From Promethearchaeota archaeon (lineage in GTDB: Archaea > Asgardarchaeota > Lokiarchaeia > Sigyniarchaeales > SOKP01), in the NCBI GenBank assembly GCA_048940645.1, contig JBHLOI010000033.1, positions 1-22,020 on the forward strand: a stretch of 22,020 nucleotides of DNA. Reading direction: 5' to 3'. The notes beneath the pieces are model-generated. The model made no database searches, was not told the origin of the DNA, and worked only from the letters and a program-made list of their open reading frames with translations. Position numbers and translations under genes: made by a program. Below are positions 3,493-17,418 of this stretch, piece by piece (within the stretch, counting starts at the first letter, position 1; each line of letters begins with the position of its first letter).

Positions 3493-4911
3493 ATGAAGAA
3501 AATGAATGAAAATATTGTCCCATTCAGGGGAACAGAACTTGTTAAAGCTGAGGTTAATGTAGTTTTAGAATTTGAAAAGATTCTTGGATATCAGTTTCTA
3601 ATAGTAGATGAGATTACGTGGAAAACTTTTGAACTCCGTAAACTCATAATAAAAGCTGAAAGTTATTTATATGATAAGAGCCATGAAGTTGATTTTGTTT
3701 GGCAATTAGCAATTTCAAATAATAATGTAGTTGGAATGGGTTTATATGTCAATCGCATGGCTAATCTTCCAAGCTTCATATCTGAATTTAAATCACTTAA
3801 GTATTTAGTGTTAAACGCAGGTGCTCTTGAAAATATCCCTGAGTCGATTGGAAATCTTCACTCATTGAAAGTGCTTAATTTGGGTAATAATCAAATAAAG
3901 AAACTTCCAAGCACGATCGGAAATCTTAAATCCCTGGAGATACTCGATTTAAGCCAAAATCATATAGAGGAACTTCCTGATTCTATTGGAAATTTAAATT
4001 CACTTATTACTTTAAGGTTAGGCAATAATCAAATTAAAACTATTCCCGAATCTTTTAAAAACCTTAAAACTCTTGATGAACTTCATTTAAACTCAAATTT
4101 CTTACAAAAGTTACCAGATCCTATAAAAGACTTAATATCATTAAGAACTTTGTATGTTGTTAATTCTAAACTTAAAGAGCTTCCAGATTGGATTGGAGAT
4201 CTAAACTCACTTGAGTTGCTAGTTATAACAGATAATGAATTATCATTTATCCCCGAATCGATTGGGAACCTCAATTCACTAAAAACTTTATTATTAAATA
4301 ATAATAATCTAACGAACCTCCCAGAATCAATATTAAATCTAAATTCTCTTAAACTTTTAAATATAAATGGAAATAATATTGAGAATCTCTCAAAATTCTT
4401 TGTCCCATTGAAGAGAAAGGGAGTTTCTGTTGTTACATCTGCAGAAGAAGTAAGCATCGATTGGGATTTAAACAATAGGATAAAAATTAATGAGATTCTT
4501 AAGAAAGGAAGTAGTCTCATTTTAACAAGAAACTATAATGAAGCGATGAACAATTTCGAAATTGCCACAGAACTTGCTGAAAAATTAAGCGATTTTAACC
4601 ATAAGTTACATTATAAATCAGCAATTTTAAATCTGACAGGGCGAGTGTATATATTGCAAGGGAATTATCATAAATCACTTGAAACTGCTCTGGAAATGTT
4701 AAAGTATGTGGAATTAAAAAACGATCTCCCTGGAAAAGCTATAGTGTATAATAATATAGGAAACGCTTATCATGGGATGGGTAAAAGTAAGGAAGCATTA
4801 AAATACTACAAAATGGGATTAAAAATATTGAAAACTCAAGGATTAGAAAATTCTCCTGATGCTTTAACAATAAAAAATAGTATAAATAAATTAAAAAAAA
4901 AGATAAAATAG
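3493..4911 (+). CDS. Leucine-rich repeat protein with C-terminal TPRs
   Basis: About 9 regular 23-aa LRRs (LPxSIGNLxSLxxLxLxxNxI), then TPR helices (AILNLTGRVYILQGNYHKSL; AIVYNNIGNAYHGMGKSKEALKYY). Confidence 0.92.
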   Translation: MKKMNENIVPFRGTELVKAEVNVVLEFEKILGYQFLIVDEITWKTFELRKLIIKAESYLYDKSHEVDFVWQLAISNNNVVGMGLYVNRMANLPSFISEFKSLKYLVLNAGALENIPESIGNLHSLKVLNLGNNQIKKLPSTIGNLKSLEILDLSQNHIEELPDSIGNLNSLITLRLGNNQIKTIPESFKNLKTLDELHLNSNFLQKLPDPIKDLISLRTLYVVNSKLKELPDWIGDLNSLELLVITDNELSFIPESIGNLNSLKTLLLNNNNLTNLPESILNLNSLKLLNINGNNIENLSKFFVPLKRKGVSVVTSAEEVSIDWDLNNRIKINEILKKGSSLILTRNYNEAMNNFEIATELAEKLSDFNHKLHYKSAILNLTGRVYILQGNYHKSLETALEMLKYVELKNDLPGKAIVYNNIGNAYHGMGKSKEALKYYKMGLKILKTQGLENSPDALTIKNSINKLKKKIK

Positions 4912-6703: not shown

Positions 6704-7522
6704 ATGAGAGAAGGAATTAATAGAAGTGAAAAAGTTAATAGTTGGGATGAAATTAATAATATCCTTTTTATGAAATCTTGGAATGAAGATCTTGGACGGT
6801 ATCGTTCTCCTTATGCATTTCGTGGTCTTCCGGACAAGGATTATAAACTTAAAACTAGTTTAATTAGGTTAGGTGGAAATTATATGAAACGCGAACAAGA
6901 TTTGCTTCGAAATTTTAGAAAATATGCTAGTAGAAATCTTGTCGAATACGATTCTATATGGCATTGGTTAGCTTTAGCTCAGCATCATGGATTACCTACT
7001 AGACTTCTAGATTGGACATTTTCTCCTTATGTAGCATTACATTTTGCTACAGCAAATATGGAGCATTTTGACAAGGATGGTATAATTTGGGCAGTTAATT
7101 ATGACCATTATCACCAACTACTGCCTGTTGAATCTAAACTTAAGAAAGAATTAGATGATGAAGGAGCAGCCCTTTTTACAGTTGAAATGTTAGCTAATTC
7201 CGTTAAAAATCTAAATGATCTAAAAACCATAATGGATGATACATTTGTTATTTTTTTTGAACCACCATCTATTGATGATAGAATAGTAAATCAATCAGCA
7301 TTGTTCTCACTTATTTCACGTTCTGATGTAACTCTGGATGATTTCCTTTACGATTTTCCATTATTAGAGGATGCTTGGTTTAAAGTTATTATTCCAGCAT
7401 CGTTAAAATGGGAAATTCGAGACAAACTGGACCAATCAAATATTACAGAAAGAGTTTTATTTCCTGGACTAGATGGTCTAAGTCAGTGGTTAGCAAGATA
7501 TTATAGCCCTAAAAATAAATAA
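6704..7522 (+). CDS. FRG domain protein
   Basis: AFRG motif, LAQHHGLPTRLLDWTFSPYVALHFA signature, RIVNQSALF, C-terminal ITERVLFPGLDG; AGGAGG RBS. Confidence 0.95.
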   Translation: MREGINRSEKVNSWDEINNILFMKSWNEDLGRYRSPYAFRGLPDKDYKLKTSLIRLGGNYMKREQDLLRNFRKYASRNLVEYDSIWHWLALAQHHGLPTRLLDWTFSPYVALHFATANMEHFDKDGIIWAVNYDHYHQLLPVESKLKKELDDEGAALFTVEMLANSVKNLNDLKTIMDDTFVIFFEPPSIDDRIVNQSALFSLISRSDVTLDDFLYDFPLLEDAWFKVIIPASLKWEIRDKLDQSNITERVLFPGLDGLSQWLARYYSPKNK

Positions 7523-8992: not shown

Positions 8993-9769
8993 ATGCGAGG
9001 TACTTACAAAAGCGAAGTTAATATAATAATTAGTATTTCTGGTTTCTGGAATGATATAAATCAATTAAGAAAGTTAATTGATAATTCTACTAAATGTAAG
9101 TACTGGTTAATTGAAAATCATTTATTGCATAAAGAGGGAAAGGGAAAATTTATCTTTCATTTTGAGAATTATAAACATATATTAAATAGATACAATACTC
9201 ATACAGGTCTTAATCCATTGAAAAAACATGAAGAGAATAAAAATAATCAACACCACTCAACCTTATATCTCATGAGTAAAGGAGGATCTATAGAAAATGC
9301 TAAAAAAATAATGTTAGCTGCTAATTGTATCCTTAATGTTGGTGGATATGAGATTGGGATCGTAACTGCTGGAATAATACATAGCAAAGAAACTTGGAAA
9401 AAATTTATAGAAAATGATAGATTAATGGATTTTATCTTTGCCTTCGTAGAAACCATCCAAAATGTTGAAGAAAATTTTTATTTTACATGTGGAATGCATA
9501 ATTTGGGATATCCTGATGTTGTTGTTCCAGGTTACCTAGATTATAACCAAGCAAATTACTTGGCTAAAGCTTTCGCGTATTATTTAGTAGAATATAATCC
9601 TGTCCTCCTATCTGGTGGTAAGTTCCGAATCGATGAAAATTCACCTAATATATACAGATATACTTATGAGAAATGCCACATCTACGATAATTTTGATAAA
9701 AACATCTATTGGCTATGCCATAATCCATATGGGTTATGGAGATTAACAGAATCTAATTTATGGACTTAA
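8993..9769 (+). CDS. DUF4261-like protein
   Basis: FTCGMHNLGYPDV, AFAYYLVEYNPVL and C-terminal HNPYGLWRL motifs. Confidence 0.7.
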   Translation: MRGTYKSEVNIIISISGFWNDINQLRKLIDNSTKCKYWLIENHLLHKEGKGKFIFHFENYKHILNRYNTHTGLNPLKKHEENKNNQHHSTLYLMSKGGSIENAKKIMLAANCILNVGGYEIGIVTAGIIHSKETWKKFIENDRLMDFIFAFVETIQNVEENFYFTCGMHNLGYPDVVVPGYLDYNQANYLAKAFAYYLVEYNPVLLSGGKFRIDENSPNIYRYTYEKCHIYDNFDKNIYWLCHNPYGLWRLTESNLWT

Positions 9770-10014
9770 TCTTTAAAAATTTTAAAACGTCTTATAATTC
9801 TTAAAATAAAAAAATAATAGTAGATACATAGATATCTTAAGCTCAAGTTGCAGAATGGCAAACTCTAATTATCCCATTTGCTAATCGACGCAATTTCCAA
9901 AGTTATGATCATTAAAAATCTTAATAGACTTCCCAACTTTAATTCTTAGTTCATATTATAAGTAAGAAAAAAAAGTCAAAATTCCGCTTAAATGGAAATA
10001 AAGTATAATATTTT

Positions 10015-10329
10015 TTATGATGAGCCTGAGCTTCGTGAGGACATTAAATCTATTAAGGATTCGGATGTTATTACAGAATTACATTTTGAACAAGAGTGGA
10101 ATATTAGAGGTATGGCTCCAACTCGATCTAAATATCGATCAACAAATTTTAAACTATACTTTGCCATTCTTTTTAGCATCTTTCCCCCAAATGGGACAAC
10201 CTCGGCTTGAATTTCTATGAAACTCTCGTAACTTTTTAATAGATCATTTTTAAACTGGTCATTGATAGGTGTTGGGTTTATTTCGAGTTTTAATTCGAGT
10301 TCTTCTTTACAATACGGGCATTTTGGCAA
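10015..10329 (-). CDS. Small zinc-binding protein (CPYC...CSKC with a helical insert)
   Basis: Two CxxC pairs at the termini; TTG start with a GTGA RBS. Confidence 0.75.
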   Translation of the reverse strand: MPKCPYCKEELELKLEINPTPINDQFKNDLLKSYESFIEIQAEVVPFGGKMLKRMAKYSLKFVDRYLDRVGAIPLIFHSCSKCNSVITSESLIDLMSSRSSGSS

Positions 10330-10526
10330 TTTAAATCACATTTTTATTATTTTAATTATTGAATTTCTGCAATATAGTTAAACATTCTATTTAAAGGGTA
10401 GAGCAATCTCATTAATAAGGTAATTGAAATATATAAGATTTTAGCTCATTCATTTTTTTTTCTACCTTTAAATAGTAAAAAGAATAATAATTTAATATTA
10501 AAAATTGATTAAATGCAATGAAAAAT

Positions 10527-10532
10527 AGGTGA
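10527..10532 (+). promoter_or_regulatory. Shine-Dalgarno AGGTGA for a CTG start at 10541
   Basis: Archaeal-type SD 8 nt upstream of an in-frame CTG. Confidence 0.6.
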
Positions 10533-10540
10533 AATAGCCG

Positions 10541-12334
10541 CTGGTCGGCCCAATAAAAATATTATTAGTAGGTGAAGCAGCCGTTGGTAAGACAAGTTTA
10601 GTTCAGAAATTTGTCAAAAACAAATTTGCAGCTGATTATAAGCTTACTGTAGGTGTAGATATTCTAACTAAAGATGTGGAATTCAAACCTGGAGAAATAG
10701 TTACTTTAAGCATCTGGGATATCGGTGGACAACAAAGATTTGACTTTATTCGAGAAGCTTTTTATAAAGGAGCGACTGGGGCTCTAATAGTTTTTGATTT
10801 AACAAGAGAAGCGACATACACTGAAACAAGAAAATGGCTCTCTGATATTCGTCAAAGTGCGGGTAATATTCCATTCGCTTTAATCGGAAATAAAGAAGAT
10901 TTGCTTGAAGATGTTGGTGCAGTTATAAACCGAGACGAAGCTCGCTCTTTTGCAGAAAATGAGGGAAGCATTTATATAGAAACATCTGCGAAGACAGGTG
11001 TAAATGTTGAACATGCCTTTAGGGAATTAACTCGAAGAGGAATCGGGTATCGTGGACAAATTGGAGTTTTGGACATTAAAGATCATTATATTCAGCCTGA
11101 TAGTAAATGGTCGGATCTACTAATAGATTATAAGGATCAGATCAATTCACGAGTTAGAGAAATACTAAGTTCCTCAAAAGAACAAGATTTCCGATTTTTA
11201 ATTCTAGGAAATCCAGAAGTACAAAAATTCTTAATATCGAAATTATTAAGCGTAGAGGGAGTTGTCTGGCCCCCAGAATCTATTAATATTCTTTATAACA
11301 CATCAAGTTATAAAATGAATTTATACTCTAAAGATTGGAAATTTCAAGTTTTTTTCTTAAGCGATTTGAAAAAAATAAATGAAAATAAGGATATTTTTCT
11401 TAAGGCATGCGAAAAAGCTGATGGGGTTATTGTTTTTTACGACCCAAATACCCGAGAAGGTTTTAATAATGCCGCTGATATGTGTATTAGCCTAAGAAAT
11501 ATGTTTCCAGATTTAGAAATAATTTTAACTACAGGTTCAGAAGATTTCATTGCTCCATCCAATCTAGAATTAGAAAGATATGTAGAGTTAGAAAAATTAG
11601 AAGAAAAGTATCAAATCAACAATTATGATGATTATGAATCAATTCTTTCAGAGATCTTAATCAACGTCTTAAAACGAAAAAAGAAGATAAATAAAGAGAT
11701 TAAGCTTATGAAAAGCAAATTGAAAGAATTCCAAGACCAGCTTAGCGATCAAAAAGCCGAACCAGATAAAGTTAGAATGGAAATAAAGGAATTTTTAATT
11801 TCTATGGAGAAACCAGAAGAGATAATGGAAGCCAAAACAAAGGTTTATGGAAAAATTAAATCAGAACCATACACTCCCGCTGAAGAAAATGTGATCTTTA
11901 TTAGTTATAGTCATGCAGATAAAGATCCTTGGCTTAAGCGTTTACAGATATACCTGAAACCTCTTGAAAAAGAAGGAATAATTCGCAGATGGGATGATAC
12001 GCTCATTGAGCCGGGACAAAATTGGTTTAATGAAATAAAACGTGCTTTAACTTCAGCAAAAGTTGGTATCTTTTTAGTAAGCGCAGATTTCTTAGCTTCT
12101 GATTTTATTTCAGAAGAAGAGTTGCCAGATTTACTATATGCTGCTGAAAAGCGAGGAACAAAAATTATTCCTGTGATTATAAATCCTTGTAGATTTTTAA
12201 AAACGAAAGGCTTAGCAGATTTTCAAGCAGCCAATGATCCTATAAACCCATTGGTGAATTTAACAAAGGGTGAACAAGACGCTGTTTTTGAAATGGTTGC
12301 AAATCAGGTTGAAAAAATACTTTCAAAGAAATAA
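10541..12334 (+). CDS. Rab-like small GTPase / degenerate GTPase-like domain / coiled coil / TIR fusion protein (~597 aa)
   Basis: Extending in frame upstream of 10676 gives KILLVGEAAVGKTS (G1) and YKLTVGVD (G2). These are followed by WDIGGQQRF (G3), GNKED (G4) and ETSAK (G5). C-terminal IFISYSHAD...WDD..IEPG..W..EI...LVSADFLASDFISEEELP is a TIR_2-type domain (~11891-12331). Confidence 0.9.
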   Translation: MVGPIKILLVGEAAVGKTSLVQKFVKNKFAADYKLTVGVDILTKDVEFKPGEIVTLSIWDIGGQQRFDFIREAFYKGATGALIVFDLTREATYTETRKWLSDIRQSAGNIPFALIGNKEDLLEDVGAVINRDEARSFAENEGSIYIETSAKTGVNVEHAFRELTRRGIGYRGQIGVLDIKDHYIQPDSKWSDLLIDYKDQINSRVREILSSSKEQDFRFLILGNPEVQKFLISKLLSVEGVVWPPESINILYNTSSYKMNLYSKDWKFQVFFLSDLKKINENKDIFLKACEKADGVIVFYDPNTREGFNNAADMCISLRNMFPDLEIILTTGSEDFIAPSNLELERYVELEKLEEKYQINNYDDYESILSEILINVLKRKKKINKEIKLMKSKLKEFQDQLSDQKAEPDKVRMEIKEFLISMEKPEEIMEAKTKVYGKIKSEPYTPAEENVIFISYSHADKDPWLKRLQIYLKPLEKEGIIRRWDDTLIEPGQNWFNEIKRALTSAKVGIFLVSADFLASDFISEEELPDLLYAAEKRGTKIIPVIINPCRFLKTKGLADFQAANDPINPLVNLTKGEQDAVFEMVANQVEKILSKK

Positions 12335-12354
12335 TTATTATTAGGTTAAGTAAA

Positions 12355-14295
12355 ATGACGCTCCCTGACAAAATAATAAAAATTATCAATAAAATTCCCA
12401 AAAAACATGAGGTCTTGAGAAAACTTATAGAAAAAAATTATCAAGTTCTGAATTTGGATGAATTGGAGGCAATTGATTTCAATAAAAAGGAAATAACAAC
12501 TGATTTTTATACAACCATCGTAACAGAAATACTATCCGCTAACTCCGAAGCTTTAGAATTACTCAAGAACTTAAGTGTTTTGAATGTGCAAATAATAACT
12601 AATATTCACCGAAAAAGTGTTGAGAAGTCGTACGATATGCATAACATTCTAGACAAATTGAATTATTTGGTGGAAACGGGATTACTCATTTATAAAAGAG
12701 AGCAGAAAGAAATCCTTGAATTTACATCCATGTATGTTCAAAATGCGATATTAATTATTTCCGACAAAAAATGCCATGAAAACGCTGTAAAATATTACGA
12801 ACAAAAAAGTAAGTATTTTAAGGAAGACTACAATAATGTAATGGAGATTTTACAACATCAATCGGAAATTGCTATCGATGAAGTGCTTGCTATCGGATTT
12901 CTTGGAGTAAATAACACATTACGAGTTGCTGGTTTTGGACTTCAAAAGCTAATTTCAATTGGAGAGAAATTGATCGGTATGGAAGATAAATATAAAGCCC
13001 CGGTTTTGGTGGCACTTGGGAACCTTTATGCCGATTTGGGAAGACGGGAGGAAGCAGAAATTGCCTATCTTGACGCCTTAAATACTTACAAAGAATTGGC
13101 AGGAACTTATTACAAGATATATTTACCTTACGTTGCAACGGTTCACAATCGTCTCGGAAAATTATACGTGGATCTCAAGAGATTTGAGGAAGCGGAAAAA
13201 ATTTATCTTGAAACGTTAAAGCTTTATAAGGAGGTAGAAAAAAGCTATAATGATATTTTCTCACCTGATGAGGAAGATATAAAATTCCAAGGAAAGTTAG
13301 ATAAACCCGACTATCAGAAAATCGAGGTGGACCTACCCATCGATTTGGACCCTGAAAAACTATGCCAGGAAGCTTTTGAGGATTATAGGGAAATAGTGAA
13401 GGAGTATCATGATGTATTTTTACCCGATATCAATTCAAGCCAGGACGAGATTGGTCATGTGTACATCGATCTGGATCTCTTGGGAGAGAAAAAAGGGGCC
13501 GTTCTTGATGAGCCGACTCTAAAAAAACTATATGCAAAAACGTGTTACGACGGACATTTAGCTGATGTGGCTACAGTATATAGCAATTTAGGCTTAACCT
13601 ACATGGAAATGGCTCAGCATGGCGATGCTGAACGGATGCATCTTGAAGCTTTAAGAATTCGAGCTAAACTCGCCGAACAATACCCCGATAAGCATCTTCC
13701 TTTGCTTGCAATCATCCAAAACGACTTAGCAACCTTATACACACATTTATTTCGGAATCAAGATGCCGAGGAGATGTACCTGGATTGCTTGAAGACCAAG
13801 AAAGAACTTTCGGAGCGAAATCCGACCTTATATTTGCTCGATTATCTTGGAACACTAAATACTGTAGGACATTTTTATTTGGGGATCTATTATTACAATA
13901 AGGCAGAAAAGATGTATCTTGAAGCTTTAAAAGGTCTCGAAAAATTAACCAAAAAAGAGCAAAAACTCTATGCTACCAAAATAGCTCTCGTACAGAATAA
14001 TGTTGGAAATGCAAACCTCTTTTTAGGAGATTATGAAAAAGCAAAACATTATATTGATAAAGCATTAATGGGTTATCCTACCAATGGTGATATTCTCTAT
14101 AATTGTGCCTGCATAGAAGCTTTAAATAACAACAATGAAAAGGCTTTAGAATTATTGGGAAAAGCAATTGAAGCTAATAAAAAATTTAAAAAATGGGCCA
14201 AAACCGATAGGTTCTTAAAAAATGTTAAGGAATTGCCAGAATTTAAAAGGCTAATTGGAGAAAAAGTGCCTATCAAGAAGAACAAAACTAGTTAA
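12355..14295 (+). CDS. TPR protein with an N-terminal winged-helix-like region
   Basis: Long TPRs (VATVHNRLGKLYVDLKRFEEAEKIY; VATVYSNLGLTYMEMAQHGDAERMH) and a terminal YNCACIEAL...AKTDRFLKNV cap. It starts 20 nt after the TIR gene. Confidence 0.9.
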   Translation: MTLPDKIIKIINKIPKKHEVLRKLIEKNYQVLNLDELEAIDFNKKEITTDFYTTIVTEILSANSEALELLKNLSVLNVQIITNIHRKSVEKSYDMHNILDKLNYLVETGLLIYKREQKEILEFTSMYVQNAILIISDKKCHENAVKYYEQKSKYFKEDYNNVMEILQHQSEIAIDEVLAIGFLGVNNTLRVAGFGLQKLISIGEKLIGMEDKYKAPVLVALGNLYADLGRREEAEIAYLDALNTYKELAGTYYKIYLPYVATVHNRLGKLYVDLKRFEEAEKIYLETLKLYKEVEKSYNDIFSPDEEDIKFQGKLDKPDYQKIEVDLPIDLDPEKLCQEAFEDYREIVKEYHDVFLPDINSSQDEIGHVYIDLDLLGEKKGAVLDEPTLKKLYAKTCYDGHLADVATVYSNLGLTYMEMAQHGDAERMHLEALRIRAKLAEQYPDKHLPLLAIIQNDLATLYTHLFRNQDAEEMYLDCLKTKKELSERNPTLYLLDYLGTLNTVGHFYLGIYYYNKAEKMYLEALKGLEKLTKKEQKLYATKIALVQNNVGNANLFLGDYEKAKHYIDKALMGYPTNGDILYNCACIEALNNNNEKALELLGKAIEANKKFKKWAKTDRFLKNVKELPEFKRLIGEKVPIKKNKTS

Positions 14296-14447
14296 TCAAT
14301 TACTTATTTTTAAGAAATCGAAGTAATTTATAATTTTTACCCATCGTTGGTTTCACATTTGAATACCTAATAAAGCAATCAAAAAATTTTAATATGTGAA
14401 TTTTCTTTTTCATCACGGAATAAAATAATACGGGGGGAAATTTAATA

Positions 14448-15236
14448 ATGTCCAGCTCATATAAAATAAAGGTAGTAGCTGCTGGATGGGAACCAGCAAA
14501 AAAATATTTCTTTCAAAATTGTGATCGAAATCTAAATAGCTTCTTTGATGGGTGTTATATAACTGTAGGAGTTGCTATTAGAAGAATTTCTTATTCCGAC
14601 GAATTTGGAGATTGTTTATCTATGTATATTTGGGATATCAACAGTTCAGAAAGATTTCATTTTATTGTTCCCACTTTTTTTAGAGGTGCTGCTGCTTGCC
14701 TTTTATTTTATGATATATCAATTCCCCAAAGTTTTGAACAATTAAATCATTGGATACAACACATTAGAGCAAACCCTGGTTATGTTCCAATTTATATTGT
14801 TGCCTATAAATCTCAGATTAAGGAAAAAACTAATTTTGAAGAGATTAATGATTTTGTTGAAGCAAACGATATTAATGAGTTTTATCTTATGTCTATTCGA
14901 AAAGTATTTAGAGCCTCCCAAATATTTGATGATATTACTGCTCGAATATCTGAATATATCTTCTCTCACAAAGCTCAAATTCCAAAAATCTCTATTAATG
15001 ATCAGAACCTCTATAAGAAATTTATCTTAACTTTTTCAAGATGTCCAATTTGCCTTGCTAAAAACCATCAAAGCACTTTAAATAGAGTTTTTTTCTCTAA
15101 AGATACTCGTATGAAAAAATTTAAAGAAAAACTAATACAATTAATGAATTTCTCTGAAAATTTTGAAGATCATTACCTGAATAAAATTAAGATAGGAATC
15201 CCTTGTTGTTCTTGCCATAATAAGATATTTTCCTAA
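14448..15236 (+). CDS. Degenerate Rab-like GTPase (pseudoGTPase) with a C-terminal Cys4 Zn-binding domain
   Basis: YITVGV, IWDINSSERF, FFRGAAACLLFYDIS..SFEQLNHWI retain the Rab fold, but G1, G3 and G4 are degenerate. C-terminal CPIC...CCSC; G-rich RBS. Confidence 0.85.
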   Translation: MSSSYKIKVVAAGWEPAKKYFFQNCDRNLNSFFDGCYITVGVAIRRISYSDEFGDCLSMYIWDINSSERFHFIVPTFFRGAAACLLFYDISIPQSFEQLNHWIQHIRANPGYVPIYIVAYKSQIKEKTNFEEINDFVEANDINEFYLMSIRKVFRASQIFDDITARISEYIFSHKAQIPKISINDQNLYKKFILTFSRCPICLAKNHQSTLNRVFFSKDTRMKKFKEKLIQLMNFSENFEDHYLNKIKIGIPCCSCHNKIFS

Positions 15237-15279
15237 AGAAAGGTAATAATTTAGAAATAAAATAAAAAAAAATTAATGT

Positions 15280-15471
15280 TTATTTGTTATTCCTTCTAAT
15301 AATATAAGGGTATTTATCGATTAATTCAAATTCCTCAGGATATTTAAGTTTCCATCCACGCGATTTGAGAATTTTTTTCTTTATTTTTTGCGTATGAAGC
15401 ACTTTTCTACTGATTCGGTTTCGTGGATATTTTTGTTTTTTTCTTTTTTGCCTTTGATATATAATTGACAT
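15280..15471 (-). CDS. Small, very basic hypothetical protein
   Basis: 63-aa K/R-rich ORF with a GAGGTG element and a hairpin upstream. Confidence 0.45.
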   Translation of the reverse strand: MSIIYQRQKRKKQKYPRNRISRKVLHTQKIKKKILKSRGWKLKYPEEFELIDKYPYIIRRNNK

Positions 15472-16089
15472 GCTAATCCGTCATCCGAATTAGCCACCTC
15501 ATCTACTCTTTTTAAATCTTTTTCTTATTCTATTATTTAATTTTATTAAGTCTTGAATAATGACTACATATTGGGCTCATAATAAATAATGGATAAAAAA
15601 GTCTAATATAACTTTTCATAATACTTGATAATCTTCTTATTATAATTAAAAGTATTCTTCCATATCGTATTAATTATTTAATATCATCTATAGTACTTAA
15701 ATGTTTTGATTAGCCATTAGAAAAGTGTGTACATATATATAATTAACGTTATGATTCAATAATGCACTTTTTGTCACAAATCTCAAAAATCTTGCTCTAT
15801 TGAGGCACTATTTCCTATATCACTTATTGAGAATTTTGACTCAATGGCATGTATTTTCAAAAAGCGCGTAATAACCTACTCTTTACCGTAAAAAATTACT
15901 TAAAGAACCGTAAGTTAAAATCTCGTATGTAAATTTTCCAAAGTAGCCTTCGAGGGCTACAACTACATTATTGCCAATAGTATTGAAAAAAAAGTTTGTA
16001 TTTCATAGAAAACTGGTATTTTAAGTATAACAAAATTCAACACCTACTAAAATTAATAATATCAAGGATAACTAAATTTAAATATTTAC

Positions 16090-17040
16090 TTATAATCTTT
16101 TCTTTTTTCTTCTATTTAATAATAGCAAAGCTACTACTATTACTATTCCTCCACTAATACTTAAAATTGGAATAATCAATTCATAAGGAATCTCTCCACC
16201 ACCTAAATAAAGAGTGCAATAATTTTCACTAAATACATTTCCATGACAATTCTCTTCAATGATGCATTTATCATTTTTTAATAGAATGTTTCTCGAAACT
16301 GTGTTATAACTACTCCTCCGTAAAAATATTCCATACTGATTGTGATTTGCGGTACTTTCCAATAGATCATTATCATAACAATTGTCTAAATATATCCCAT
16401 AAGTATTGTTACTTGCTGTGTTTTTTATAAGATTATTGCCATTACTATAGATTAAATACATCCCATAATCATTATTATTTGCTGTGTTTCCCGATATCTC
16501 ATTAATATTACTATATGTTAATCGTATCCCTCCATTGTTTTTATTTAAGGTGTTTCCCAAAACTATGTTATAATTACTCCTCCATAAATATATCCCATAA
16601 TAAGTAGATGAACAATTATTGGCAACTAGCTGGGCATTCTCAACATCTGTTATTTTGATTCCCGCATTAGGAGATCCTCCAGAATTATATACCGTACAAT
16701 TTTCAATTTTAAAGTACACATCGGAATTTTGAATAAGGATGCAACTTTCCGAACCTCCGCCATCGATTTCTAAATCTTTTATGACATAAGGGTCGGAATA
16801 AGTACCCTGCCCCGTACAATTATCCGCATTTCTAAAAGCAACCCATCCTGAATTATTGATTATATGAATTTTTCCCGATATTTTTGAGCTTTTTAGATTT
16901 ATACTTTCTAAATTATTATTATCTATTTTTCCCGAATTCATTTGCCTATTTCCATCATTGAAGTTAATATTTATGTAATTAATAAGTGTTAAGGTGAAAA
17001 GGATTCCTAAAACTATAATAAAAATAAATTTAGGTTTCAT
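16090..17040 (-). CDS. Membrane-anchored right-handed beta-helix (NosD/CASH-like) surface protein, paralogue of 466-1569
   Basis: Signal peptide, CTGQGTYSDPYVI motif, YGIYLxxSNxNxIxxNTANNN repeats, C-terminal TM plus RRKKKR. Confidence 0.88.
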   Translation of the reverse strand: MKPKFIFIIVLGILFTLTLINYININFNDGNRQMNSGKIDNNNLESINLKSSKISGKIHIINNSGWVAFRNADNCTGQGTYSDPYVIKDLEIDGGGSESCILIQNSDVYFKIENCTVYNSGGSPNAGIKITDVENAQLVANNCSSTYYGIYLWRSNYNIVLGNTLNKNNGGIRLTYSNINEISGNTANNNDYGMYLIYSNGNNLIKNTASNNTYGIYLDNCYDNDLLESTANHNQYGIFLRRSSYNTVSRNILLKNDKCIIEENCHGNVFSENYCTLYLGGGEIPYELIIPILSISGGIVIVVALLLLNRRKKKRL

Positions 17041-17418
17041 AATTGCTTACTTGTCAATTGCTCATTAATAAGGAGGTTAATTTCCTTTATATATATTTCA
17101 ACTAATCGAAAGAAAGCACTCACAAATGGATTTACTCAATAAATTAACAAATATTGAATGATTAAATAAATCTTTTTAAAGCCATATATCATTTTTTATT
17201 TATATATTTTGTCCACAACTGATGGATCGGTTAAGCCGGCGCCAATATCTGTTACTGAAAGAATTGATTTTAATATCTTTATTGAAAAGATCAAGCGGAT
17301 TTTAAAAATGAATCTTATAATTTATAGTAAGGAAATTTTAAAATGAGGGAATCTTAATTGATTCAATTGAAAGCAGTTCTTCAAACATTTTAATTCTCTA
17401 GTACTAAATGTTTCAGAT

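Follow-up and report, generated by a model that had tools for sequence, protein, structure and literature searches.

TIR domains and NLR-type receptors lie at the core of eukaryotic and bacterial innate immunity. In bacteria, a small Ras-like AP-GTPase of the Roc-COR type has been proposed to replace the STAND NTPase, sometimes in combination with a TIR effector (Kaur, Burroughs, Iyer, Aravind; PMC7159879, PMC8195603; bioRxiv 10.64898/2026.10.19.760177). Moreover, DUF4062 has been shown experimentally to be the NADase effector ('NIR') of Avs2 (bioRxiv 10.64898/2026.09.04.749371). Here, we analyze three genes of a Promethearchaeota archaeon, termed R, T and P, which can be compared with both systems. 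They lie on a stretch of 22,020 nucleotides (assembly GCA_048940645.1, contig JBHLOI010000033.1, positions 1 to 22,020), referred to as the window, whose GC content is about 30%. R encodes a Rab-like GTPase, a putative pseudo-GTPase, a long helix and a TIR domain in a single chain, T encodes what appears to be the sensor half of an NLR/Avs-like receptor, and P a probable pseudo-Rab with a C-terminal cysteine ribbon.

The three genes have the same orientation and are separated by gaps of 20 nt (12335-12354) and 152 nt (14296-14447), as a first-pass annotation of the sequence had described. Its domain inventory was also right: Pfam detects Ras and TIR_2 in R, TPRs in T and Ras in P, P also has a cysteine ribbon, and the long predicted helix of R is a candidate coiled coil. 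All three genes are under purifying selection (ratios of nonsynonymous to synonymous substitution rates, dN/dS, of 0.10-0.42 against orthologues), and Rfam gave zero matches over positions 9700-16200. That annotation had further proposed that the three genes act together, but they do not look like an obligate system. The order R-T-P is limited to close relatives, distant R homologues stand alone, T and P occur without R, and R and T occur without P. We therefore favor, with moderate confidence, the reading that R is a self-contained conflict protein whose TIR domain is controlled by a GTP switch, with T and P as no more than accessories in this clade. R would then act in conflict (antiviral or abortive-type) or in stress signaling. 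The switch would be the nucleotide state of its Rab-like domain, which the pseudo-GTPase domain and the helix may relay to TIR-TIR assembly, and the assembled TIR would cleave NAD+ or make an NAD-derived signal. In the subclade that carries R, T and P would perhaps serve as accessory sensor or regulator, on which R itself would not depend.

Table 1. Features of the R-T-P locus and its surroundings, in window coordinates.
Feature	Position	Strand	Description
Ancestral R start	10529-10537	+	GTG-AAA, then TAG (10535-10537); CAG in orthologues; from DNA alignment with three orthologous loci
Gene R	10541-12334	+	Rab-like GTPase, putative pseudo-GTPase, long helix, TIR; 597 codons from CTG 10541; open frame 10538-12334
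R GTPase domain	10553-11047	+	Rab-like, G1-G5 intact
R middle domain	11186-11746	+	Ras fold without P-loop (putative pseudo-GTPase), family signature
R long charged helices	11642-11842	+	Residues 368-434; candidate coiled coil or linker; AlphaFold2 secondary structure
R TIR domain	11888-12325	+	Pfam TIR_2; candidate catalytic Glu527 in SEEEL (nt 12110-12124)
Gene T	12355-14295	+	646 aa; NLR/Avs-like sensor half that lacks NTPase and effector
T HD1-WHD-HD2-like module	12355-12999	+	Residues 1-215; homology and AlphaFold2 structure alignment
T TPR array and TPR end-of-group cap	13000-14274	+	Pfam TPR_10/TPR_12 and related; NCBIfam TPR_END_plus 8.9e-17
Gene P	14448-15236	+	Pseudo-Rab (residues 1-170) and C-terminal CPxC...CCxC ribbon (nt 15042-15215)
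LRR-TPR gene	3493-4911	+	472 aa; LRR_14, 7.8e-43, and C-terminal TPRs
FRG-domain gene	6704-7522	+	PADLOC candidate family PDC-S15, 1.6e-49
Variable stretch after P	15237-17418		Between P and a conserved gene block

The GTPase-TIR protein R

Residues 6-165 of R match Pfam Ras at 2e-50, and the motifs GEAAVGKT (11-18), T36, WDIGGQ (59-64, with Gln64 present), NKED (117-120) and SAK (149-151) are all found at their places. Foldseek relates the domain to Rab7/8/4, with TM-scores of about 0.9 (normalized to the target) and identities of 32-40%. We call it Rab-like rather than a canonical Rab, because the chain, which ends in ...KILSKK, has no C-terminal Cys prenylation motif and runs on for 420 more residues beyond the GTPase domain. 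The domain is 79% identical to a stand-alone Asgard GTPase of 174 aa; switch I is the same in both, and switch II nearly so. This core GTPase hardly varies (tree branch lengths 0.006-0.09) among metagenome-assembled genomes (MAGs) labeled Prometh-, Hod-, Thor-, Hermod- and Odinarchaeota (L010-L087). The genome of the window, in which at least 51 Ras-like genes are found within 3.8 Mb, has its own copy (G000:C121:572-1093). R is the closest paralogue of that copy with 81% identity, and the other Ras-like genes (at least 49) are at most 43% identical to it. A scan of genome contigs with the R family alignment (A1) was swamped by the 174-aa protein. Since R carries a near copy of the core GTPase with the same switch I, it probably reads the same exchange factors, GTPase-activating proteins or (viral) modifiers as the housekeeping protein. 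The GTPase tree (quick IQ-TREE) has many unresolved forks, at which single and repeated capture of GTPase modules are not discernible.

The middle domain of R (about residues 216-402) shows the strand and helix order of Ras in an AlphaFold2 (AF2) model of R built on 24 homologues, which has a mean predicted local distance difference test score (pLDDT) of 80.5 and low values at 425-448. Foldseek with this whole model recovered Rab chains only, and the domain was therefore judged from its AF2 topology, from hhalign, whose alignment of it with the N-terminal GTPase keeps the expected register (E 2e-4, probability 47%), and from Atlas feature matches to Ras/Arf clusters, the latter being a lead only. 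We consider the middle domain a pseudo-GTPase because GNPEVQK, FFLSD and TTGSE replace the motifs at the G1, G3 and G4 positions. It is thus presumably unable to bind nucleotide. Conservation of the domain is high, with WPP, ILYNT and LEII invariant in the 24-member family alignment. Pfam finds no COR domain (PF16095) in R, in which the second Ras-like fold follows the GTPase instead.

Pfam TIR_2 matches residues 452-562 at 3e-15 (57.1 bits against a cut-off of 28), and the AF2 model shows alternating strands and helices in this region. Among solved structures, AbTIR and PdTIR match it best. In a phmmer alignment with AbTIR (8g83, 3.8e-5), E527 in SDFISEEEL is paired with the Glu of DWTNYEL (YEL motif), and this Glu is kept within one alignment column in the 23 R-family members that have a canonical TIR block. 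In line with the first-pass annotation, the domain retains the candidate catalytic Glu and has the NADase AbTIR and ThsB-type TIRs as its nearest relatives. A solved 'tetratricopeptide repeat protein' of 824 aa whose N-terminus is a TIR (PDB 9m0n/9umd) is a weak match (E 0.059) and a possible structural comparator for proteins that combine TIR and TPRs.

A database search recovered about 30 full-length proteins with the Ras-middle-TIR layout (37-90% identity), all from Asgard MAGs or unlabeled metagenomes. Their named hosts are Promethearchaeota and Thor-, Hermod- and Hodarchaeota. The R-family middle domain was detected in 8 of 400 Asgard genomes and in 5 of the 41 genomes of the same genus. 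In this search only part of the first-look candidates were scored, and genome G240, whose contig breaks off within R, escaped detection. When compared with database entry P0001, two groups of family members differ in their identities. In group B (P0015-21 and P0025), identities are 40-46% for the GTPase, 48-60% for the middle domain and 50-75% for the TIR. In group A (P0022, P0023 and P0026-32), they are 52-68%, 44-54% and only 17-20%. The middle domain thus stays at 44-60% across both groups. As judged from these alignments, the R family has evolved as a mosaic in which GTPase and TIR modules were shuffled, as is typical of conflict proteins. Other layouts seen are a Ras domain joined to TIR by a linker of ~380 aa (P0038, 681 aa), a TIR-Ras protein (P0039, 336 aa) and a Ras-middle protein with a non-TIR C-terminus (P0034, 557 aa, Hodarchaeota).

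In support of the reading of R as self-contained, all R homologues that are at most 56% identical and have readable flanks (L005/L006, L007, L093, L104 and L105) stand alone, with neither T nor P nearby. A conserved small membrane protein 3' of distant R homologues was considered and dropped; L005 and L007 both have an ORF (open reading frame) of ~200 aa there, but the two show no detectable relationship to one another, and none to P.

The genes T and P and their order

An exhaustive phmmer search with residues 1-215 of T yielded 65 relatives, of which the named ones are Promethearchaeota. Most are 900-1350 aa long, and the matching segment (29-40% identity, E down to 1e-25), which begins at residue ~360-400 and spans about 360-600, lies between an AAA_16/NB-ARC STAND NTPase and TPRs; their N-terminus is DUF4062, or TIR_2 in one case. 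The AF2 model of T(1-215) has a pLDDT of 89. VIA-align superimposes ~190-210 of its residues on the Pyrococcus STAND-TPR protein 6mfv (Z 12.6, chain 278-494), MalT (Z 11.5, 200-414) and Apaf-1 (Z 9.3, 304-540), in all cases on the segment after the nucleotide-binding domain, and plant NLRs and Avs3 score below these three. T itself begins just past the position of its relatives' NTPase: Pfam detects in it no NTPase family (NACHT, NB-ARC or AAA_16) and no N-terminal effector domain. Because residues 1-215 match the post-NTPase segment both in sequence and in predicted structure, T is the half of an Asgard DUF4062(NIR)-STAND-TPR receptor that comprises two helical domains around a winged helix (HD1-WHD-HD2) and the TPRs, the NTPase and the effector having been lost. 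This agrees with its earlier description as a WHD-TPR sensor. T is not a dead remnant, since its dN/dS against five orthologues is 0.10-0.19. The PADLOC Avs models matched neither T nor its long Asgard relatives, a second copy of the T module was not found in the window's genome, and a metagenome scan with T gave two loci only.

In the relatives that have a STAND domain, the winged-helix hairpin is followed by a conserved motif, FxFKHIQ(D/E)AL. At this place T orthologues have SMYVQ, SEHIK, SEFVQ or SEYVQ, which suggests that the nucleotide-sensing His was lost. That this motif is mostly gone counts against canonical docking of T onto a nucleotide-binding partner. A predicted complex of full-length R with T(1-215) scored 0.00 in a prediction made without control runs, and this value counts neither for nor against contact.

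P matches Pfam Ras at 1e-14, and its nucleotide motifs are degenerate: the P-loop AAGWEPAKK is one residue short, and WDINSS and AYKS stand at G3 and G4. The same short P-loop, WDINSS and AYKS are common to the 17 P homologues (39-76% identity), and the cysteines of CPxC...CCxC are present in at least 90% of them. P thus looks like a pseudo-GTPase with a zinc ribbon that has probably lost nucleotide binding. Its dN/dS is 0.26-0.42, and P-like paralogues of the same length (31-36% identity) are found in 28 of the 41 genomes of the genus. In L098, the P homologue (53% identity) is accompanied by WD40, isochorismatase-like, ARPP-1, another Ras-like and NADAR-domain genes, and in L089 and L091, too, P has isochorismatase-like and NAD-synthase genes close by. 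The pattern could reflect a theme of NAD/ADP-ribose metabolism around P, or chance.

Synteny was compared across Asgard genomes, as the first-pass annotation had suggested. The order R-T-P was found in the window and in five further contigs, L088, L096 (G238), L106, L107 and L108 (G240), of which L107 and L108 probably represent the same arrangement. All come from close relatives (R at least 86% and T at least 84% identical), the placed ones from the same genus, and the triplet may for this reason have been kept by descent alone. In G257, R is followed by T without P. In G265 (L048 1232-5621), four genes come between R and T. They encode, in this order, a SLATT/DUF4231 protein with two transmembrane segments, a protein with a Zn-ribbon, a TIR_2 protein of 394 aa and a Ras-like protein of 364 aa whose motifs are degenerate (LLLGEPSASKY, WDCDCQ and GCKLE). 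Four genes separate T from P in L089, and T is directly followed by P in L091, whose contig begins inside T. In L099 and G258, T and P (72% and 63% identical) are found without R, a divergent ORF lying upstream. The gap between R and T is 15-20 nt in three loci and 100-160 nt in some others. T was not found beside the more distant P homologues, and in L100 the T-like gene is followed by one that does not resemble P. A general rule by which T pairs with Ras was rejected, since the T-like NTPase-less paralogues (38-42% identity) have no Ras-like neighbor. From gene order, T-P looks like the older pair, with R upstream only in a subclade of one genus.

On its other side, P is separated from a conserved block of Mo-oxidoreductase, CitMHS, 455-aa protein and NAD-synthase genes by a segment whose content differs in every relative. 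In the window this segment is occupied by a beta-helix/NosD gene, in L089 by a WD40/TPR/isochorismatase insert and in L107 by a STAND gene, and in G257 it is empty. It behaves like an insertion hot spot.

In line with the immune-like character that the first-pass annotation had proposed, defense-type genes are found both in the neighborhood and at related loci. An FRG-domain gene lies 3 kb upstream of R in the window. A convergent gene about 1.2 kb downstream of R-T-P in L107 (8238-12071, minus strand; G240:C21) encodes a STAND (AAA_16/NB-ARC)-TPR protein of at least 1277 aa that is 29.5% identical to T over 600 residues. In G265, SLATT and a second TIR stand between R and T. Stand-alone R homologues have an AAA_15/21 ATPase and an integrase adjoining R (L007), a TIR-STAND gene 4 kb from R (L105) or an HD-CE/HATPase_c_3 gene nearby. 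Further upstream in the window, a protein of leucine-rich repeats and TPRs is another repeat-sensor-like gene.

Alternative readings of the locus

Several observations weigh against R as a self-contained conflict protein. One concerns its start. Orthologues of R open with GTG-AAA-CAG-CCG (VKQPLVGP), and the window has GTG (10529)-AAA-TAG, a nonsense codon at position 3, with no ATG, GTG or TTG upstream of the P-loop in its R frame. The same letters are found in a Logan contig of run X3, possibly the source sample, that covers 10456-10637. The 5' end of the orthologues carries a tandem duplication of ~36 nt from the stretch that encodes the P-loop (AAAATATTATTAGTAGGTGAAxCAGCCGTTGGT twice), whose first copy, read in another frame, supplies their start codon. 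Pyrrolysine read-through of the TAG was dropped, as no PylD was found above the cut-off in the genome. Alternative start codons are CTG 10541, with GGTGA 9 nt upstream, and ATA 10559, which fits the start of database entry P0004. R must here start at one of them, or else be a very recent pseudogene; given the TAG, it may be weakly expressed or recently inactivated. Moreover, PADLOC recognizes only the TIR of R and calls no system at the locus, R has Phe at the Trp of the bacterial WxxxE TIR motif, and the R loci L093 and L104 lie amid ordinary metabolic or signaling genes, including histidine kinases. The recurrence of defense genes around R, T and P loci is suggestive, and it is anecdotal. 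Finally, 'self-contained' would be too strong if R, T and P do co-operate in this clade, which is possible given the recurring triplet and the mere 15-20 nt between R and T in three loci.

Such co-operation is the essence of a split NLR-like system of three components, in which T would sense, its HD1-WHD part would engage the Ras switch of R, the TIR would cluster and P would act as a regulator or decoy. It would explain why the R-T-P order recurs in five further contigs, why the R-T junction is short, with AGGT 10 nt ahead of the ATG of T, and why selection is purifying on all three genes. T is an NLR half without NTPase and effector, and R would bring just these, an NTPase and an NADase-type effector. 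T also stands beside a Ras-like gene in three arrangements, with R upstream, with P downstream or, in G265, with the unrelated 364-aa degenerate Ras upstream. We nevertheless regard this account as unlikely. The triplet loci are all close relatives whose order is perhaps inherited, T-P does without R in G258/L099 and R-T without P in G257, and the partners are separated by four or five genes in G265 and L089. The R-T gap widens to 100-160 nt in some loci, T orthologues mostly lack the KH of FxFKHIQ(D/E)AL, and distant R, T-like and P-like paralogues are mutually unlinked.

In another reading, R, T and P are independent, chance neighbors in a variable chromosomal spot, and R is being lost in this genome. 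The segment after P, which varies in every relative, the genes inserted between R and T in G265 (SLATT, Zn-ribbon, TIR and pseudo-Ras) and the TAG at codon 3 all fit this view. What speaks against it is that the 15-20 nt junction was kept in three loci, that the remaining 597 codons of R are intact with a dN/dS of 0.14 against the G257 orthologue, and that T is repeatedly found beside Ras-like genes, of which there are only about 51 in 3.8 Mb. We give it the same low credence as the split receptor. The least probable of the readings considered here is a non-immune one, in which R belongs to the Asgard small-GTPase network and its TIR acts as a scaffold for protein-protein contacts or produces an NAD-derived signal for housekeeping. 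The GTPase of R is indeed nearly identical to a core housekeeping protein, Asgard genomes hold dozens of Ras-like genes, which occur in many fusions, and some R loci lie amid histidine kinases and metabolic genes. Against this stand the patchy presence of R (8 of 400 genomes, 5 of 41 in the genus), the exchange of the TIR module between two types that are 17-20% identical, the retained catalytic Glu and the TIR, STAND, SLATT and AAA_15/21 genes that recur nearby. The self-contained conflict protein thus remains our preferred reading.

Comparison with known systems

The first-pass annotation had not recognized the combination as a described system. The concept itself has a precedent: bacterial TIR-bearing systems in which a Ras-like GTPase takes over from the STAND NTPase have been published. 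Of the Asgard Rab-pseudoGTPase-TIR family and of the NTPase-less T family, the Asgard small-GTPase and defense literature searched holds no description.

The TIR of R resembles Thoeris ThsB, its best PADLOC match (7.9e-17), as well as AbTIR (8g83/7uwg) and PdTIR (3h16), with the catalytic Glu aligned. It differs from ThsB and stand-alone TIR NADases in being the C-terminal module of a 597-aa GTPase protein and in the Phe noted above. A PADLOC check, as had been proposed for the locus, accordingly recognized this TIR and one generic TPR and returned no complete defense system, and no SIR2, SLOG or Macro domain of a Thoeris ThsA partner is encoded in the window's ORFs of at least 80 aa. T, for its part, shares the post-NTPase HD1-WHD-HD2 module and TPRs with the Asgard DUF4062-AAA_16/NB-ARC-TPR proteins, which have the effector-STAND-TPR layout of NIR-Avs2. 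It is unlike NIR-Avs2, other Avs proteins and NLR-like STAND proteins (6mfv, MalT 8bob, Apaf-1 3sfz, Avs3 8dgc) in that it has no NTPase and no effector, and its orthologues have mostly lost the His motif.

R also calls to mind plant NLRs with integrated decoy domains and tandem GTPase/pseudo-GTPase proteins. By analogy, it could be likened to the former as a copy of a host protein (the core GTPase, 79-81% identical) fused to an immune-type effector, and to the latter as a chain with an active and a dead copy of one fold. The likeness to plant NLRs is one of analogy only: R has no NB-ARC in the same chain, and viral targeting of the core GTPase is hypothetical. Carried further, R might be an 'integrated-mimic' sensor, whose TIR NADase fires when the core GTPase is tampered with, for example by a virus, and T and P would be coupled to it as a split NLR analogue that uses a Ras switch for the STAND ATPase. 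We consider this combined scenario quite improbable. If true, it would provide an archaeal precedent for innate immunity gated by a small GTPase, in the lineage closest to eukaryotes.

A close parallel is with the bacterial AP-GTPase systems. As in R, a Ras-superfamily GTPase is the proposed switch and is tied to an effector of the apoptosis or immunity type, for example TIR; their sensors are repeat arrays (LRR or TPR), to which the TPRs of T may be compared, and an LRR-Roc-COR-TIR protein (P0086) is among the distant database matches to R. R departs from these systems in having no COR and in carrying its GTPase on a chain free of repeats. The GTPase itself is Rab-like, a near match to a core Asgard GTPase, and shares its chain with a long helix and another Ras fold that has no P-loop. 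R is found only in Asgard MAGs and unlabeled metagenome contigs. A Rab-like switch wired to a TIR domain would be a concrete candidate function for at least some of the Asgard small GTPases, and the presence of R beside an NLR half without its ATPase in one genus makes a case for studying the exchange of immune switches and sensors. If the GTPase gates the TIR, the bacterial idea of a GTPase in place of STAND would extend to archaea, and to a type of GTPase that is shared with eukaryotes.

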